DNA of 64,000 nt, taken from contig JAQURC010000002.1 of assembly GCA_028715785.1 (NCBI GenBank), positions 219,393-283,392 of the forward strand, written 5' to 3'. Source of the stretch: Candidatus Omnitrophota bacterium. Lineage in GTDB: Bacteria > Omnitrophota > Gorgyraeia > Gygaellales > Profunditerraquicolaceae. Below, piece by piece: positions 8,974-15,137 of the stretch. A program made the translations under genes and the position numbers. Numbering within the stretch: the first letter of the stretch is position 1; every line of letters starts with the position of its first letter. The notes beneath the pieces were generated by a model. It saw nothing but the letters and a program-made list of their open reading frames with translations, did no database searches and was not told the origin of the DNA.

Positions 8974-9693
8974 ATGTTAAAATATTTTATGCGCTCTGAC
9001 CGACTCTTACAGGTTACTTTTGCTATTTCTCTGCTTACTCACGGGGCAATCCTGCTACAGGCCCCAAGCCTTAATCCTTTTTCTCCTGTGCAAAAGAAGC
9101 AAAAGATAGAAGTGCATTATATTAAAGAGAATCTGCGGGCTAAATCCTTACCCAAGGCTTCTCCCGGGCCGGATTTACAAACTTCTTTCCCTAAGCCCGA
9201 GCCTTTTCTAAAGCTTGATTCAAAGGTAGTCACCGGAACTAAAACCCCCCCGCCTTATATTGAACAGAATAATGCATCTAAAACAGAAAGGCTCCCGCCC
9301 AACAGGACGTTAGGCTTCCCCAAGCCGACTTTTGCCGCACCCCCGCTAATGGCAATAAAGAAAAAGATCAGTTTGCCTCCCATCGAGATGGCCAAGATCA
9401 ATAACCCAAGTTATATAAATTACTACCAGATTGTCCGGGAAAAGATCCGGCGCAGCGCTTATCAAAATTATACCCATAATGAAACGGGGGAAGTCTATAT
9501 TTCATTTATTATCTCCTGCGACGGCTATATTAAAGATGCGCGTTTAGTCGAAGAGAAAACAACTGCCGGTGAATATCTAAAAGAGATTGCCTTAAGAAGC
9601 GTAAAAAATGCCTCTCCTTTTCCTGATTTTCCCAAGGAGCTGGACTATCTGCAGCTTTCTTTTAATATTATAATCTCTTTTGAGATAGAATAA
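8974..9693 (+). CDS. TonB family protein (N-terminal TM, Pro-rich spacer, TonB C-terminal-like domain)
   Basis: N-terminal hydrophobic helix and a proline-rich middle (PPPYIEQ.., FPKPTFAAPP). C-terminus GEVYISFIISCDGYIKDARLVEE..ASPFPDFP matches the TonB C-terminal pattern. Confidence 0.5.
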   Translation: MLKYFMRSDRLLQVTFAISLLTHGAILLQAPSLNPFSPVQKKQKIEVHYIKENLRAKSLPKASPGPDLQTSFPKPEPFLKLDSKVVTGTKTPPPYIEQNNASKTERLPPNRTLGFPKPTFAAPPLMAIKKKISLPPIEMAKINNPSYINYYQIVREKIRRSAYQNYTHNETGEVYISFIISCDGYIKDARLVEEKTTAGEYLKEIALRSVKNASPFPDFPKELDYLQLSFNIIISFEIE

Positions 9694-9820
9694 GCCGCTA
9701 AATTTAAATTCCTTGAAATAGAATTTGGCGCATGTTAGTATAATATGTAATCTAAAAAGAGCGATTGCCGTTAAAAGCAACCTTACTTGCAACTATAATT
9801 TAAAAAAGGAGACAGATGAT

Positions 9821-10207
9821 ATGGCTGAAAAAAAACGGATATTTATCGCCGATGACGACGAAGTAGTTTTAACCAGCCTGAAGAAATTGCTGCTTATGTC
9901 GGGTTTTGAAGTATACGCGACAACGAATTCCAAGGATGTATCCTCAATGGTCAAGTCCTTTAAACCCGACCTCATCCTTCTTGATTTACTCCTGCCGGAT
10001 TTAGGCGGTTTAGAAATTTGCGATATTTTAAACAAGGATACGGAAACCCAGGGGATACCGATAATTATCCTCTCCGCCGTAGGAAATTATACCGACATAC
10101 GCAAGGCCTACGCATTGGGGGTAATTGGTTACATTACCAAGCCTTATGAATTCCCGCGGTTATTAAAAGAGATCCAGAAGGCAATTGAATCTAAAGAAAG
10201 GATGTAA
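9821..10207 (+). CDS. Single-domain response-regulator receiver (CheY-like)
   Basis: Start at ATG after an AGGAG RBS (MAEKKRIFIADDDE). Acidic pocket DDDE and phospho-acceptor Asp in ILLDLLLPD. No output domain. Confidence 0.8.
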   Translation: MAEKKRIFIADDDEVVLTSLKKLLLMSGFEVYATTNSKDVSSMVKSFKPDLILLDLLLPDLGGLEICDILNKDTETQGIPIIILSAVGNYTDIRKAYALGVIGYITKPYEFPRLLKEIQKAIESKERM

Positions 10208-10238
10208 CCTCTTAATCCTCGGCTAACCGGAGAAATTA

Positions 10239-11504
10239 ATGAAGAAAAAAATAATTATCGGCATAATTATCTTCGGCTTTATGTGTTTTCCTGCCGCTCT
10301 TCTAAGGGCTGGCAATGACGTGGAAGATTTAAAGGAACAGATTAAACAATTGCAGTCAACCATCGAGGCCTTAAAAGTAAAAGTAGAGGACTTAGAGAAA
10401 AAACAAACAAGTGCGTCCAGCCAGGTAGCTAAAATTCCCGAAATCTCAGAATCTGTAAAACAGCTCAAAGAAAATAAGCCAAAAGGCTTCTCTATCGAAG
10501 GCGCCAGGGTTGGCGGGCATCTCAAATTATTCCTGTTTGACCAGGCGCAAGGCAAACGTAATGGCTTAAAACAAAGCTCAAACACCTCAGCCGGAATTTC
10601 CCATTTCTACCTGTTTATTGATAAAGACCTGACCGATAATACAAGCATAAGCGTTCAACCGGATATTACCGTAACCGCTTCGGCCACTCCCGCCCTGGGT
10701 TCCGATATCAGCCGCGCCAAGAGCGCATCAACCACTACTTCTATTTACCAGGCCTTTATTAAAACGCGCCTGAATAACGGTTTAGAAATAAAAGCAGGTG
10801 TATTTAATCCTTATTTTTCCGAAGAGTACGCTTCCGAAGTCTGGTGGGACGAACAATACCATATGAATAAAGGGGTTGCCGATATCGAATCCTGGCATGA
10901 TTCGGGGATTGAGTTTTATAAAAACTTTGATTTTAAAAACTTCTCTGTCCCGGCTTATTTTTATTTACTTAACGGAAATGTTACCAATACCGACGGTAAG
11001 TTCGTGGACAATAATGACGGCAAAAGCATCTTGTTGCATATTGCCCCGGAGGTCTCCAAATTCAGGTTTTTTGGCTCCTTCGGCTACGGTAAATGGGACG
11101 ACGGTAATGATTATGATAGCTGGCGTTATGCCTCGGGGCTTGAGTACAAATATAAAAAATTTACCTTAAGAAGCGAGTATTTGTTTAATAAATTCGAAGA
11201 TACGGCATTAACCGGCGGAGGGAGGGTTGATACCGAAAAGAAAGGTTACTATATCAAAGGCCTCTACCGTTTCAATCCCAAATGGCGCGCTTATATTAAT
11301 TATAGCGACGTGAACCTCCCGTATACCGGCGGCAGCAGCTTGTTAAAAGATACCTATAAAGCGGCAACTTTAGGATTGAATTATTTTTTTACCAACAGCT
11401 CCATAATCATGGGAGAAGTTTCCCGGGTCAACGGGGACAGGTCCGATGGATCCGAAAAGCTTGATTATTACCGCTCCACGATCGGCTGGAGAACCACTTT
11501 TTAA
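10239..11504 (+). CDS. Putative outer-membrane beta-barrel protein (porin-like) with an N-terminal coiled coil
   Basis: Signal peptide, heptad-repeat segment, then alternating amphipathic strands rich in Tyr/Gly/Asn. C-terminal residue is Phe (..RTTF), typical of OM beta-barrels. Confidence 0.45.
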   Translation: MKKKIIIGIIIFGFMCFPAALLRAGNDVEDLKEQIKQLQSTIEALKVKVEDLEKKQTSASSQVAKIPEISESVKQLKENKPKGFSIEGARVGGHLKLFLFDQAQGKRNGLKQSSNTSAGISHFYLFIDKDLTDNTSISVQPDITVTASATPALGSDISRAKSASTTTSIYQAFIKTRLNNGLEIKAGVFNPYFSEEYASEVWWDEQYHMNKGVADIESWHDSGIEFYKNFDFKNFSVPAYFYLLNGNVTNTDGKFVDNNDGKSILLHIAPEVSKFRFFGSFGYGKWDDGNDYDSWRYASGLEYKYKKFTLRSEYLFNKFEDTALTGGGRVDTEKKGYYIKGLYRFNPKWRAYINYSDVNLPYTGGSSLLKDTYKAATLGLNYFFTNSSIIMGEVSRVNGDRSDGSEKLDYYRSTIGWRTTF

Positions 11505-11510
11505 TTTATT

Positions 11511-12512
11511 ATGAGAAAAATATTATTATCGATCCTTATAATCGCAATAATAACCGTCGGTGCCTTCTGGATTATGCGGGGATCCCAAGCTGCTCCAGAG
11601 CAGCAACGCAGGGTAATGATGACTACTTACGTAACCATTTATGCTTACGGCAGCAAACCTGCTGTTTCTAAAGCCATCGACCAAGCTTTCCAGCGAATGC
11701 AGGAGGTTGCGGATAAGTTTAATGCCCATAATCCCGACAGCCCCCTATACGCGTTTAATCAAAATGGCACTCCGATTAAAGACAAGGAGATCCTTAGGGT
11801 CATAAAAATAGCCCAGGATATCAGCAAACAATCAGATGGCGCATTTGATATTACGGTTTACCCTCTGGTAAAACTCTGGGGATTTTATGGCGAGGATTCA
11901 GGCCAAATACCGCCGGCTGATAAAATTACCGAAGCTTTAAGCCGTATCGGCTACAAGCATCTTATTCTTGCTAACGGCCAATTGAAAAGAGATAATGAAA
12001 ACATATTGATTGACCTGGGCGGTATTGCCAAAGGCTATGTGGTAGGCCAGGGCATCCAGGCATTAAAAAAAGCCGGAGTCAATTCGGCAATAATCCAGGC
12101 CGGAGGGGATATCTATGCTCTGGGGCATAAAAAAGAAAAACCCTGGAAAATAGGCATCCGCCATCCGCGTAAAGAAGGGATCCTGGGCTATTTAGAGGTG
12201 GTTGATCAGGCGGTTATGGGCTCAGGGGACTATGAAAGGTTTTTTATCAAAGGCAGTAAAAGATACAATCATATTATCGATCCTAAAACAGGTTATCCTG
12301 CCAAAGAAGCAATAGGGGTAACGGTAATTTATCCTGATCCGGCTGTTGCCGATGCCTGGGGACCGGCACTTTCGATATTGGGCCCTGACGGCCTTAAGAT
12401 CGTCGAAAAGATCCCCGGCATGGAGGCGATAATCGTAACTGGCTCCGGAAAGCTTTTATACACTTCAGGTTTAGCAAGGCTGCTCAATACCTATGATAAA
12501 AATGAAAACTGA
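11511..12512 (+). CDS. apbE: FAD:protein FMN transferase (ApbE family)
   Basis: 333 aa with an N-terminal TM/signal and ApbE motifs (FDITVYPLVKLWGF, DLGGIAKGY, GDYERFF). Confidence 0.85.
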   Translation: MRKILLSILIIAIITVGAFWIMRGSQAAPEQQRRVMMTTYVTIYAYGSKPAVSKAIDQAFQRMQEVADKFNAHNPDSPLYAFNQNGTPIKDKEILRVIKIAQDISKQSDGAFDITVYPLVKLWGFYGEDSGQIPPADKITEALSRIGYKHLILANGQLKRDNENILIDLGGIAKGYVVGQGIQALKKAGVNSAIIQAGGDIYALGHKKEKPWKIGIRHPRKEGILGYLEVVDQAVMGSGDYERFFIKGSKRYNHIIDPKTGYPAKEAIGVTVIYPDPAVADAWGPALSILGPDGLKIVEKIPGMEAIIVTGSGKLLYTSGLARLLNTYDKNEN

Positions 12513-13101
12513 TGTTCTAAAGAAAATTTTGCTGATTATATTCTTTCTCCTTATCTGCGCCGATCTTTGTTTTGCTATCACGCTTTTGACCGAACAAGAA
12601 GCTTTAGACCGGCTCCTGCCGCATGCTTATGGAACAGAAATAACCACTCAAAAAATAACTGCTTCTCAAAAACAGCTGGATATGATTAAAAAGGAATTGG
12701 GGGGCAGGCTAGTTTACGAAATCAGGGATCGAGCCGCTAAAGAATTGAATCAACAAAAAGAATTTATTTTTTATTTTGCCAAAGATCAGAACGGAACAAT
12801 CGGGATAGCCCTTATTTTGGACGAGCCGGGAAAATGGGGGCCGATTAAATTCATTATCTATCTGGGGCCAAAAGGAGAAATTCACTCTACCGCAGTAATG
12901 AAATACAGCGAAACCCGCGGCAGGCCCGTTGCTTCAGGAAGCTTCTTAAGGCAATTTTCCGGCAAGACCCTTAATGATCCGCTAAACTTAGACCAGGACA
13001 TACAAGGGATCTCCGGAGCGACAATTTCTTCCCATGCCGCCTGCTTTACGATGAAAAAGGCAATGGTTTTATATAAAATACTGGTATTGGACCAAAAATA
13101 G
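12493..13101 (+). CDS. Stand-alone FMN-binding domain protein (extracytoplasmic, predicted flavinylation substrate)
   Basis: N-terminal hydrophobic segment. FMN_bind-type motif GISGATISS holds the Thr/Ser acceptor used by ApbE in NqrC/RnfG-type domains. Overlaps apbE by 20 bp. Confidence 0.75.
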   Translation: MIKMKTDVLKKILLIIFFLLICADLCFAITLLTEQEALDRLLPHAYGTEITTQKITASQKQLDMIKKELGGRLVYEIRDRAAKELNQQKEFIFYFAKDQNGTIGIALILDEPGKWGPIKFIIYLGPKGEIHSTAVMKYSETRGRPVASGSFLRQFSGKTLNDPLNLDQDIQGISGATISSHAACFTMKKAMVLYKILVLDQK

Positions 13102-13106
13102 AAAAA

Positions 13107-14726
13107 ATGAAAAGGCTTAAAGACATCACGGTAAGAAATAAAATTTTGCTGGGTTATTTTTGCATCATAGCATTCTTTATCGGGCTGGGGATATATTATG
13201 TCGACGCGACAAGGAAGATAAGCCAGGTAAGCCGCAAGATCGAATTGCATAATTTTACCGGAGTCGAGTTGATCACTGAAATCCAAAGGAACGTATTGAT
13301 CGTAAAAAATTTACAGAGGGGAATTTATTATGTCCAGAGAGACGGGCAGTTGCTGGAAATTAAAAAACACCTGGATATTTATGCTTCCAAAATTGCACAG
13401 CTTATCTCGGAATTAGAGGAATTGGAAAAAAATGGGCCGCCGGATACCTTAAGAATAGTATCCAGAATTAAAGGTTTGTTCCAAGAATACCGCAATTTGG
13501 TTTATAAAGAAATCCGGGATGGAATAAACGAAAAGGTTTATTGGGAGTTTAACGAACCGGCTGCTTTAAGGCAGTTAGAAGAAGAGTTAAACGACCTGCA
13601 CAATGAAGAAGTTTCCATTTTTTCTTTGGCGTTAGGAAATATGGACCATCTGGCAAGAAGAATGCGCGATAGTTATATTTGGACGCTTTTAATATTAATT
13701 CTTCTTTCAATCTGGATTGCCTGCTGGATCGCCGGGATCATTGTTAAGCCCATCATGAATTTAATCATGGGAATGCGTAAACTCGGTAACGGCAACCTTG
13801 ATTATAAAATAGAGGTAAAAAATAACGATGAAATCGGCATATTGCAGAACGGTTTTATGGCCATGGCCAACCGTTTAAAGTTGGCGCATGATGCTTTGCA
13901 GAAAGAAAGGGACAGCCTGGAGATTAAGGTAAAGGACCGGACAAAAGATTTAGAGCAGAGCCAAACGAATTTAATCCAGGCAAATGAAGAGTTAAAACGG
14001 ATTCAGAACCAACTCATCCAATCGGCAAAAATGGCGGCGATCGGATCGCTTGCCGGAGGAGTGGCGCATGAAATAAACAATCCCCTCACCGGGGTATTAA
14101 ATAATGTGGAGTTGATTAAAATGGAAATGGCGGAAAAAAATGATTTTGCCCCGGCGGATTTTAAAGGGCTTCTGGATATTATCGAAGAATCGGCTTTGCG
14201 CTGCAAGCGGATTGTCCAGGGGCTTCTGGAATTTTCTCATATCGGAAAAGAGGAGGTTAAACCCGCCTTGATCAATGAAGTTTTGGAAAAAACCATCGCT
14301 TTAGCCGGCAACGAGATGCGGCTTGAAAATATAAAAATTACCAAGGAATTCGCCAATAGCCGCCCGATGGCCAAGATTGATGTTAACCGCTTCCGGCAGG
14401 TCATTTTAGATATTATAAATAACGCAAGATGGGCCCTGCGTAACAAACCCCCCCATGCGGAATTAAGGATTAAAACTTTACTCTCGGAAGATAAGAAGCT
14501 TGTGATAATAGAAATCTACGATAATGGCTGCGGTATCGAAAAGGATACCCTGCCGCATATCTTTGAGCCGTTTTTTACCACCAAAAAAATCGGTGAGGGG
14601 ACAGGGCTGGGTCTGTCTATTTCTTACCAGATTATTAAAGAACTCAACGGTGTCCTGGAAGCAGAATCTGAAGGTAAGGATAAAGGAGCGACATTCAGGA
14701 TTAAGTTACCGGCAGCAGTAAACTGA
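13107..14726 (+). CDS. Sensor histidine kinase (2 TM, periplasmic helical sensor, HAMP, HisKA, HATPase_c)
   Basis: TM helices near residues 14-34 and 190-212. H-box [11 protein letters not shown]-box, G-boxes (GTGLGLSI). Confidence 0.9.
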
Positions 14727-14756
14727 TCAATAACAATTTAATTAAGGGGGTGTTTA

Positions 14757-15137
14757 ATGGACGGAAAAAAACCGCGCGCTTTAGTTGTGGATGATGAGAA
14801 AATCATCCGTGATTTTTTAAACACCCTGCTATCCCTGCAGGGGCTTGAAGTAGTCAAGGCTGAAGATGGATATAAGGCGATAGAGCTGTCCCGCACAGGG
14901 GGATTCGACCTTTTTTTCATCGACTACAGGCTGCCGGGCTTAAACGGTTTAGAGACTTTCCGCCAAATACGCCAGATTGACCAGGATGCCTCGGTAGTAA
15001 TGATGACCGGCTATGCGGTAGAAGGCATTCTCGAACAGGCAGTGAGCGAAGGGGCGTACGGTTTAATCCGCAAACCGTTTAATATCGGCGAAATAAAATA
15101 CTTAATCGATAAAATCCTGGTAGAAAAGAAAAAATAA
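14757..15137 (+). CDS. Single-domain response-regulator receiver (CheY-like)
   Basis: 126 aa, LVVDDE.., phospho-acceptor Asp in FFIDYRLPG, conserved Lys (IRKP). No output domain. Confidence 0.85.

Follow-up and report, generated by a model that had tools for sequence, protein, structure and literature searches.

A conserved gene pair connects an exported FMN-binding protein to a four-helix-bundle sensor and suggests redox sensing outside the cytoplasm of Omnitrophota

Results

A six-gene locus in an Omnitrophota genome

This study concerns a locus of six genes in a 64-kb stretch of DNA from a Candidatus Omnitrophota bacterium (contig JAQURC010000002.1), referred to in its full length as the window, and in particular two adjacent genes encoding an exported protein of the FMN_bind family, the predicted carrier of a covalently attached flavin mononucleotide (FMN), and a sensor histidine kinase (HK). 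The pair is preceded by genes coding for a response regulator receiver (RR1), an outer-membrane β-barrel, hereafter termed porin, and an ApbE-type FMN transferase, and it is followed by a second receiver (RR2; Table 1). The six co-directional open reading frames (ORFs) and the 20-bp overlap at the end of apbE described in a first-pass annotation of the sequence were verified on the plus strand between positions 9821 and 15137, with intergenic gaps of 31, 6, -20, 5 and 30 nt in order of the genes. The accompanying view of a single apparent operon is based on the common direction and tight spacing, but the six genes are not indivisible as porin and receivers vary between relatives. Since the gene order recurs in related loci, the arrangement is beyond chance. 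A scan for promoters and terminators neither supports nor contradicts the single operon: the number of promoter-like sites in the region is not above shuffled expectation, and no terminator was detected between the six genes.

The search for other potential partners of the flavoprotein was extended to the entire window, where we found no ORF with at least two CxxCH motifs, no family matches in tblastn for EetA, EetB-ECF-T, UbiA, polyprenyl synthase or NqrF and no RnfA/E-like or NqrF-like genes. Within these 64 kb there is thus no membrane-bound electron-transfer partner, no cytochrome, no gene of quinone biosynthesis and no Rnf or Nqr gene, which leaves the two-component system as the only visible partner of the flavoprotein, as had been proposed initially. 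A 239-residue protein with a weak match to a TonB C-terminus is encoded just upstream of RR1 (window 8974-9693) and unannotated proteins of 234-252 residues occupy the same slot in L027 and L029; this protein is a possible further member of the operon.

Table 1. Location of the genes and their features. Positions refer to the window (TM1 and TM2, first and second transmembrane segment; AF2, AlphaFold2).
Feature	Start	End	Strand	Basis
Candidate operon promoter, TTAAAA-17-TATAAT, sigma-70-like, upstream of RR1	9771	9799	+	Consensus match only
RR1, single-domain CheY-like receiver, 128 aa, no output domain	9821	10207	+	Pfam Response_reg, 2e-24
Outer-membrane β-barrel, N-terminal coiled coil, distantly OprO/OprP-like	10239	11504	+	Weak Porin_O_P match
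ApbE-type FAD:protein FMN transferase, N-terminal hydrophobic export/anchor segment	11511	12512	+	PF02424, 2e-81
Exported single-domain FMN_bind protein, RnfG/NqrC fold, 202 aa	12493	13101	+	PF04205; apbE overlap 20 nt
Codon of Thr177, predicted covalent FMN attachment site (S174-G-A-T177)	13021	13023	+	Motif
Sensor histidine kinase: TM1, four-helix-bundle periplasmic domain, TM2, HAMP, HisKA, HATPase_c	13107	14726	+	Pfam
Periplasmic sensor domain, approximately residues 26-194	13182	13688	+	Alignment A2, AF2, Foldseek
RR2, single-domain receiver, 126 aa	14757	15137	+	Response_reg, 7e-26

Properties of the flavoprotein and the kinase

The assignment of the 202-residue protein to the FMN_bind fold is borne out by a match to PF04205 (1.2e-9, 39 bits at a cutoff of 22) and by an AF2 model (pLDDT 91.2), whose top matches in Foldseek are RnfG (9eri_G) and NqrC (8a1y_C) with a probability of 1.0 and TM-scores of 0.43-0.49. 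Its scores with RnfG-type NCBIfam models amount to 42 bits for TIGR01947, 41 for NF045876 and 33 for NF041840 compared to respective cutoffs of 102, 205 and 230. A signal peptide probably ends at Ala28, with cleavage between CFA and IT. The predicted attachment site of FMN is contained in the sequence GISGATISS (residues 172-180). Among 29 homologues the stretch SGATISS is conserved, with G175, A176 and T177 being invariant and S174 nearly so (at least 90%), and the SGAT residues are retained in flavoproteins linked to sensors and in those linked to electron transfer.

In the kinase, Pfam assigns a HAMP domain (residues 207-258, 1.5e-9), a HisKA domain (314-380, 2.9e-13), whose H-box HEINNP contains the phospho-acceptor at His 321, and a HATPase_c domain (425-536, 2.4e-21), and full-length orthologues were identified (P0065-P0078). 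Hydrophobic segments at positions 7-25 and 195-213 enclose about 169 residues, which were modelled by AF2 as four long helices (pLDDT 90), in line with the helical periplasmic loop preceding HAMP that had been recognized in the first-pass annotation. The structural neighbours of this model found with Foldseek include MCP2201 (7wrm_A, TM-score 0.70), Vc1313 (8bsa_A, 0.63), Tar and the sensor of HK9. Alignment A2 of the family reveals two signature motifs, SRxIELxNFxGVEL and LRDEDIxxLSxxLGxIDxLA, and invariant Arg and Lys residues. The window sensor has no match to PF12729 or PF05227, but 4HB_MCP_1 is found in the sensors of two relatives (P0192, with 1.8e-9 above the cutoff, and the kinase of L117) and CHASE3 in 4 of 17 family members (best 8.5e-7), while a sequence search of the PDB with the sensor profile returned marginal matches only. 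Judged by its predicted structure, the domain is thus a rare and divergent four-helix bundle of the 4HB_MCP/CHASE3 type. Its rarity is illustrated by an exhaustive HMMER search of 1.84 billion proteins, which retrieved 18 cluster representatives at E≤1e-3.

Conservation of the pair in relatives

For comparison, 106 loci were obtained from scans of genome and metagenome collections and their ORFs were called and labelled with family hidden Markov models (HMMs). In 13 loci overall (the window, L001, L010, L027, L028, L029, L110, L111, L113, L114, L115, L116 and L117), FMN_bind is located immediately upstream of a gene of the sensor family, with gaps ranging from -14 to +21 nt and several 4-nt overlaps, whereas L018 contains the two genes in reversed and overlapping order. 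L027, whose flavoprotein is 80% identical to the one of the window, contains all six genes and their flanks in the same order. In L029 (73%), the arrangement RR-ApbE-FMN_bind-HK-RR has lost the porin, and in L028 (58%), which also lacks the porin, ApbE and FMN_bind are followed by a split protein consisting of sensor, HAMP and PAS domains, a PAS-kinase and a receiver. Four more distant loci (L001, L010, L116 and L117; 44-53%) share the order porin-ApbE-FMN_bind-kinase-receiver. The concern that the operon might not be conserved in relatives is countered by the retention of all six genes in L027 and of the pair in 13 loci.

The same relationship was recovered in a reverse test, in which the search was initiated from the kinase and the gene upstream was subsequently inspected. 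In L110 and L111, whose kinases are 50-51% identical over their full length, FMN_bind ends at the kinase start or overlaps with it, and in L113 and L114, where the sensor domains are only 33-36% identical, it is retained with a 4-nt overlap although ApbE and porin are not adjacent. L112, a paralogue from the same metagenome-assembled genome as L113, is the only member checked that does not contain FMN_bind upstream. The pair therefore persists in loci without porin (L029, L028), without adjacent ApbE (L113, L114) and without downstream receiver (L110, L111), and it is FMN_bind directly followed by the sensor domain that constitutes the most conserved feature of the window clade. A conservation of all six genes as a unit is ruled out by the absence of the porin in L029 and L028 and of receivers in L110, L111 and L113. 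ApbE is adjacent in nine of the sensor-linked loci which, together with the conservation of SGAT and of the residues of the flavin site, argues that the flavin still matters in this clade.

Whereas the pairing is maintained, the signalling output has changed. In L115, a chemoreceptor of 497 residues with HAMP and MCPsignal domains is encoded 13 nt after ApbE-FMN_bind (FMN_bind 50% identical), and its residues 5-212 match the full sensor HMM at E = 1.5e-34, including both signature motifs. In the split design found in L028 (L028:10646-13767) and in P0185-P0188 and P0190, a sensor-HAMP-PAS protein of 453-463 residues is devoid of a kinase domain, which in L028 is provided by a separate PAS-HisKA-HATPase protein. 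Since it was observed in five cluster representatives, this architecture is a conserved design rather than the result of a frameshift. Other members of the sensor family carry extra PAS domains. The exchange of kinase, chemoreceptor and HAMP-PAS outputs implies that it is the periplasmic domain, rather than one particular output, to which the flavoprotein is linked, and the chemoreceptor of L115, which does not control transcription, excludes operon autoregulation as explanation for the linkage. Equally, with only 18 sensor representatives in the searched proteins, the pairing is not the by-product of an abundant domain. The notion of porin-ApbE-FMN_bind as sole core with an incidental kinase is weakened by the gene contexts of the clade, the reverse test and the fusion to a chemoreceptor. 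In a neighbour-joining tree, all flavoproteins linked to the four-helix-bundle sensor (type A) fall into one clade, and neither EetA nor EetB was found near any type-A-linked flavoprotein of that clade.

ApbE, porin and receivers

The ApbE of the window covers the PF02424 profile in full length (positions 1-266 of 266, 2.3e-81), and the predicted N-terminal export or transmembrane segment is recognizable in the hydrophobic sequence MRKILLSILIIAIITVGAFWIM. As the protein contains no Cys at all, and hence no lipobox Cys, it is not a lipoprotein. Its score with the NCBIfam equivalog is 131 bits compared to a cutoff of 498, and it is therefore not the enterobacterial orthologue. Orthologues in relatives are 44-57% identical.

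The porin comprises 421 residues, of which the N-terminal ones resemble a signal sequence and the last is Phe, and contains a coiled coil. Its match to Porin_O_P is close to the Pfam cutoff (9e-05, 22.3 bits compared to 20.9), and a search of the PDB with the family profile returned marginal matches to OprO (0.013) and to a 50 kDa outer-membrane protein (1e-3). Orthologues with 28-53% identity are present in nearly all loci between L001 and L026. From this distribution, the porin appears to be an ancestral neighbour of ApbE-FMN_bind that is dispensable in the window clade.

Both receivers consist of a single Response_reg domain, which agrees with the earlier statement that they lack a DNA-binding output. 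Inspection of RR1 reveals the acidic pocket and the Asp, Thr/Ser and Lys residues. An alternative TTG start is found at 9725, but the ATG at 9821 is favoured because orthologues contain 128 residues. In relatives, the corresponding slot is occupied by a 128-residue gene product in L027 and L029 and by a 123-residue receiver in L001, whereas an equivalent of RR2 is located 3' of the kinase in L001, L010, L027, L029, L116 and L117. Receivers adjoining the module are nearly all single-domain proteins of 114-168 residues.

Several members of the kinase family are adjoined by genes resembling those of type IV pili or type II secretion systems (T2SS; L028:14577-20624, L112:130-1865, L117:10191-11234), including an MshE/T2SSE ATPase, T2SSF, pseudopilins and PilM, and by a receiver-PilZ protein. 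These proteins are possible targets of the single-domain receivers. Genes of sulfur relay were found next to the pair in L018 (L018:2645-3817), encoding a TusA-like protein with a CPxP motif, DsrE2 and DsrE, and in L113 (L113:130-354), where TusA is directly upstream of FMN_bind; this proximity may hint at a signal related to sulfur compounds or be a coincidence. A different partner precedes a kinase on the P0097 contig that aligns with 77% of the window kinase at 42% identity and has a sensor outside the 18-member family. In this case, the gene immediately before encodes an ABC_sub_bind periplasmic binding protein, in a layout of partner and kinase that mirrors the one of FMN_bind.

Relatives of the flavoprotein in electron-transfer clusters

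Outside of the window clade, the flavoprotein family is found in a different environment. The order EetA-like protein (NusG_II), EetB-ECF-T, porin, ApbE and FMN_bind is common to most of the loci obtained from Desulfobacterales, Firestonebacteria, Elusimicrobia and other Omnitrophota, and EetB-ECF-T is a single protein in which Hpre_diP_synt_I, the Pfam family to which EetB belongs (PF07456), is fused to CbiQ. Such fusions have been noted previously (PMC9973259), and EetB with an ECF-T subunit has been experimentally supported as FAD exporter feeding ApbE in Listeria (PMC9973259). Where a locus extends 600 nt or more downstream of FMN_bind, the gene that comes next encodes a cytochrome (19), a protein of a family termed F10 (15), a type-A kinase (6), a kinase with six transmembrane segments (type B, 6) or another protein (16). 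In Desulfobacterales, the gene after FMN_bind encodes an MtrC/OmcA-like decahaem protein (PF22113, 2e-50), with multihaem cytochromes and cytochrome b located upstream, whereas in several other phyla FMN_bind is followed by the four-transmembrane protein F10, a single-domain receiver and a PilS-like six-transmembrane (PF25323) kinase. Because the orthologues reside in clusters of electron transfer, with a cytochrome next in 19 loci, we take the role of an electron carrier as ancestral, and the window clade looks like a derived, pared-down form of such a module.

In L003 (L003:7603-13028), the decahaem protein following porin-ApbE-FMN_bind is a lipoprotein of about 780 residues, and the same arrangement is found in L004, L005, L007, L011, L012, L022, L024, L036, L047, L048 and L050. 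Upstream of such trios are EetA, the EetB-ECF-T fusion and three cytochromes, of the octahaem, trihaem and b561 types. As far as gene content indicates, this cluster looks like an undescribed outer-membrane electron conduit with a flavinylated component. A paper on OetA/OetB in syntrophic sulfate reducers does not mention ApbE or FMN-binding proteins, and we found no published description of OetA/OetB- or EetA/NusG-related clusters of this kind.

F10 is a protein of 150-170 residues without Pfam match, whose gene directly follows FMN_bind in L015 (L015:10630-11088) and also in L002, L013, L016, L021, L031, L045, L052 and L056, and which has distant counterparts in L097 and L100-L102, where the order is FMN_bind-F10-ApbE. 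Its invariant residues (in L015 numbering) include K14, Y28, T39, H63, K91, P98, D105, M109, G128 and W147. With only one invariant His, an assignment as bis-His haem protein is unsupported. Type-B kinases (L015:11496-12812, L014:10580-11947 and L025:3123-4517) adjoin the flavoprotein module in Omnitrophota, Firestonebacteria and Elusimicrobia. Between these three phyla, their membrane domains share 37-47% identity, and in most cases a single-domain receiver accompanies the kinase. L010, L116 and L117 contain, besides the four-helix-bundle kinase, an additional kinase of about 430 residues upstream of the porin, which shows a weak match to the type-B sensor in L116 and L117 and none in L010.

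In two loci (L015:2-2666, L021:1062-4040), the tail of a Na+-NQR-like operon, with an NqrC-like FMN_bind protein, two RnfA/E-like proteins and an NqrF-like protein, is followed by UbiA and polyprenyl synthase directly upstream of EetA-EetB-porin-ApbE-FMN_bind, and one ApbE may thus serve both an Nqr-like and an Eet-like system. Finally, in L042 (L042:9101-16561) FMN_bind is separated by 524 nt from a giant ORF of at least 2487 residues that runs off the locus and whose sole Pfam match is an internal HATPase_c domain.

Discussion

The conserved arrangement of FMN_bind and sensor genes suggests that the flavinylated protein on balance probably acts as periplasmic redox co-sensor for the four-helix-bundle domain. 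In the mechanism that we infer from gene content, motif conservation, synteny, sensor rarity and predicted folds, ApbE would attach FMN covalently to Thr177 of the exported protein, as indicated by the motif and the gene linkage, and the holo-flavoprotein would associate with the periplasmic domain of the kinase, as indicated by the strict conservation of the gene pair. Periplasmic oxidants and reductants, possibly entering via the OprO/P-like porin, would set the redox state of the flavin, which in turn could change the conformation of the four-helix bundle. The resulting signal would be transmitted via TM2 and HAMP to control autophosphorylation of His321 and phosphotransfer to RR1 and RR2. 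Four-helix-bundle sensors are known to read periplasmic proteins docked to them, as in the case of Tar with the maltose-binding protein and of TorS with TorT. With respect to its origin, the flavoprotein would derive from an electron-transfer module of the envelope, which other phyla have kept intact and which comprises EetA, the EetB-ECF-T FAD exporter, porin, ApbE and FMN_bind, followed by a cytochrome or a four-transmembrane protein. The broader proposal, where exported FMN proteins provide the redox input of a new class of extracytoplasmic sensors, in which a dedicated bundle drives a kinase, a split HAMP-PAS protein or a chemoreceptor, and which has emerged by exaptation of an envelope module, is more tentative and we would judge it to be a little short of even. 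Such sensors would be the flavin-based equivalent of periplasmic haem-c sensors and the periplasmic equivalent of Aer. A second, independent solution to this task may be provided by the PilS-like six-transmembrane kinases that recur next to the flavoprotein family in three further phyla.

Several observations weigh against the assignment as co-sensor. The tight linkage of the genes can also reflect co-expression alone, and the ancestral role as electron carrier may have persisted in the window organism with partners encoded elsewhere in the genome. The best-conserved motifs of the sensor adjoin the membrane, and a similarly placed membrane-proximal conserved box in NarX binds nitrate directly, so that these motifs would fit direct sensing of a small ligand without involvement of the flavoprotein. 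The sensor-linked clade of flavoproteins is distinguished by no more than about seven positions, which is too few to define an interface. There is also a deviation in the predicted flavinylation site: whereas GISGATISS with its Thr177 is present and conserved, as described in the first-pass annotation, the Asp of the published motif D-x-x-[S/T]-G-A-[S/T] (PMC12052999) is displaced by two residues, with Gln171 at position -6 and a conserved Asp169 at -8. According to the 2025 review, mutation of this Asp to Ala has only minor effects (PMC12052999), which suggests that this small deviation is tolerable. The original idea of an exported FMN protein working with the periplasmic domain of the kinase has gained comparative support from 13 loci, while the family as such is not intrinsically a sensor.

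Among other explanations, we consider it unlikely, although deserving serious attention, that the flavoprotein carries electrons outside the cytosol as part of a FLEET-like or porin-linked chain, whose membrane and terminal partners are encoded elsewhere, and that the sensor reads an independent cue such as a small anion bound directly by the bundle, with co-expression or regulation of the pathway as the only link. This would be consistent with orthologues in EetA-EetB/ECF-T-porin-ApbE-FMN_bind clusters with decahaem and multihaem proteins and cytochrome b in Desulfobacterales, with the Nqr, UbiA and polyprenyl synthase genes in clusters of other Omnitrophota, with the role of EetB as experimentally supported FAD exporter serving ApbE (PMC9973259), and with the invariant Arg and Lys and the membrane-proximal motifs of the sensor. 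The vicinity of two unrelated kinase types to the module, one with a four-helix bundle and one PilS-like with six transmembrane segments, is also what would be expected of interchangeable regulators. However, this explanation does not account for a pair that survives the absence from the locus of all other electron-transfer genes, of the porin and even of ApbE, for a sensor that despite its rarity is almost never found without FMN_bind and for a chemoreceptor as partner, and the adjacent receivers, being nearly all single-domain proteins, carry no DNA-binding output. It is hardly tenable that the protein belongs as ordinary RnfG/NqrC subunit to an Rnf or Na+-NQR complex whose other genes lie elsewhere and that its adjacency to the kinase is incidental. 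Although its fold and best sequence matches are those of RnfG and NqrC and some homologues are named 'RnfG subunit', its scores fall far below the cutoffs of the RnfG-type families, the window contains no Rnf or Nqr gene and the synteny with porin, ApbE and sensor holds across four phyla. The separate NqrC-like gene beside NqrD/E/F-like genes in L015 and L021 identifies the family as distinct paralogue, and we have thus rejected this identity based on family scores and context.

We regard it as improbable that the flavoprotein instead is a periplasmic enzyme or ligand processor, for example a reductase of Fe(III) chelates, quinones or humics, sulfur species or O2, which makes, consumes or presents a small molecule that is bound by the bundle. 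To our knowledge, a 170-residue RnfG/NqrC domain with a single FMN and no second cofactor or substrate pocket serves as electron relay and not as enzyme. No source of electrons is visible locally, and the TusA, DsrE2 and DsrE genes, which would be compatible with such activity, adjoin the pair in L018 and L113 only. Besides these genes, a processing function would draw on the same synteny as the proposed co-sensor, on the OprO/P-like porin, which suggests the entry of anionic solutes, and on the oxidase activity reported for a soluble multi-flavinylated protein (PMC12052999).

The proposed co-sensor shares features with several known systems. As in TorT-TorS and in the interaction of the maltose-binding protein with Tar, the gene of a separate exported protein adjoins that of the sensor, to whose periplasmic domain the protein would by analogy dock, and in the family of the window sensor this proximity is conserved in 13 loci, with one case of reversed order and one exception. 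The four-helix-bundle fold of the sensor is shared with the ligand-binding domains of Tar and other chemoreceptors, and in its family the domain is combined with kinase as well as chemoreceptor outputs. Co-sensing by an accessory protein is also known for LuxP-LuxQ, where the sensor is of the PAS type. The accessory proteins of the Tor, Tar and Lux systems are solute-binding proteins without cofactor that report a ligand, whereas the partner in the window is a predicted ApbE substrate with a covalent redox cofactor. In Aer, where FAD is bound non-covalently to a cytoplasmic PAS domain in the same polypeptide, it is similarly the redox state of a flavin that drives a HAMP-containing protein, as we propose here for chemoreceptor or kinase, and L115 could by analogy be viewed as a periplasmic counterpart in energy taxis. 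Covalently bound haem c is employed for periplasmic sensing by the chemoreceptors GSU0582 and GSU0935 of Geobacter and by Cache_heme receptors (PMC3460858, PMC12889525). These proteins likewise sense redox state or gases outside the cytoplasm by a covalent cofactor and feed chemoreceptors or kinases in anaerobes, but their cofactor is located in cis within a PAS or Cache domain, whereas FMN would reside on a separate protein with RnfG fold and act in trans on a bundle. The locus resembles the accessory co-sensors, haem-c sensors and Aer-type sensors in logic or chemistry and is a member of none of them.

A second group of related systems is concerned with electron transfer. The FLEET locus of Listeria (FmnB/ApbE, PplA, EetA, EetB, FmnA, DmkA/B and Ndh2) has ApbE and a secreted FMN_bind substrate in common with the window, and relatives of the latter resemble it further by the presence of EetA and the EetB-ECF-T fusion and in some cases of UbiA and polyprenyl synthase. 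In contrast, the window contains no EetA, EetB, Dmk or Ndh2, the organisms are diderms whose cluster includes an outer-membrane porin, the flavoprotein consists of one FMN domain without lipobox, and its conserved neighbour is a signalling protein. RnfG and NqrC share the fold, the N-terminal hydrophobic helix and the ApbE-type SGAT site of the window flavoprotein but differ in family score and gene context, and a separate NqrC co-exists in related loci. The relationship to MtrCAB conduits is confined to the MtrC/OmcA-like decahaem lipoprotein that follows the trio in Desulfobacterales, whereas the window contains no cytochrome, its porin is OprO/P-like rather than MtrB-like and the cluster lacks a periplasmic decahaem protein of the MtrA type. 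By the features that define these groups, the locus encodes an ApbE, a protein with FMN_bind fold and a HisKA kinase with a four-helix-bundle sensor, and it does not qualify as RnfG/NqrC subunit, FLEET locus or Mtr-like conduit.

The view that this architecture is uncharacterized is consistent with our searches of the literature, which did not provide a precedent for the pairing of FMN_bind and sensor kinase. The text of two large surveys of flavinylation and of the 2025 review does not refer to kinases, sensors, two-component systems or signalling, and kinase domains are encountered only in passing, in a supplementary gene table.

Collectively, our analysis bears on a modification that has so far been understood only as a means to build extracytosolic electron-transfer chains. 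The porin-ApbE-FMN_bind-MtrC-like clusters of Desulfobacterales indicate that electron conduits of the outer membrane may contain a flavoprotein. In the window clade, the maintenance of the pair upon change of the signalling output suggests an undescribed form of redox sensing outside the cytoplasm. If true, the widespread flavinylation by ApbE would acquire a new function in providing the input to kinases and chemoreceptors, and anaerobes with few cytochromes such as Omnitrophota would gain a plausible way to sense external oxidants, electron acceptors or partners.

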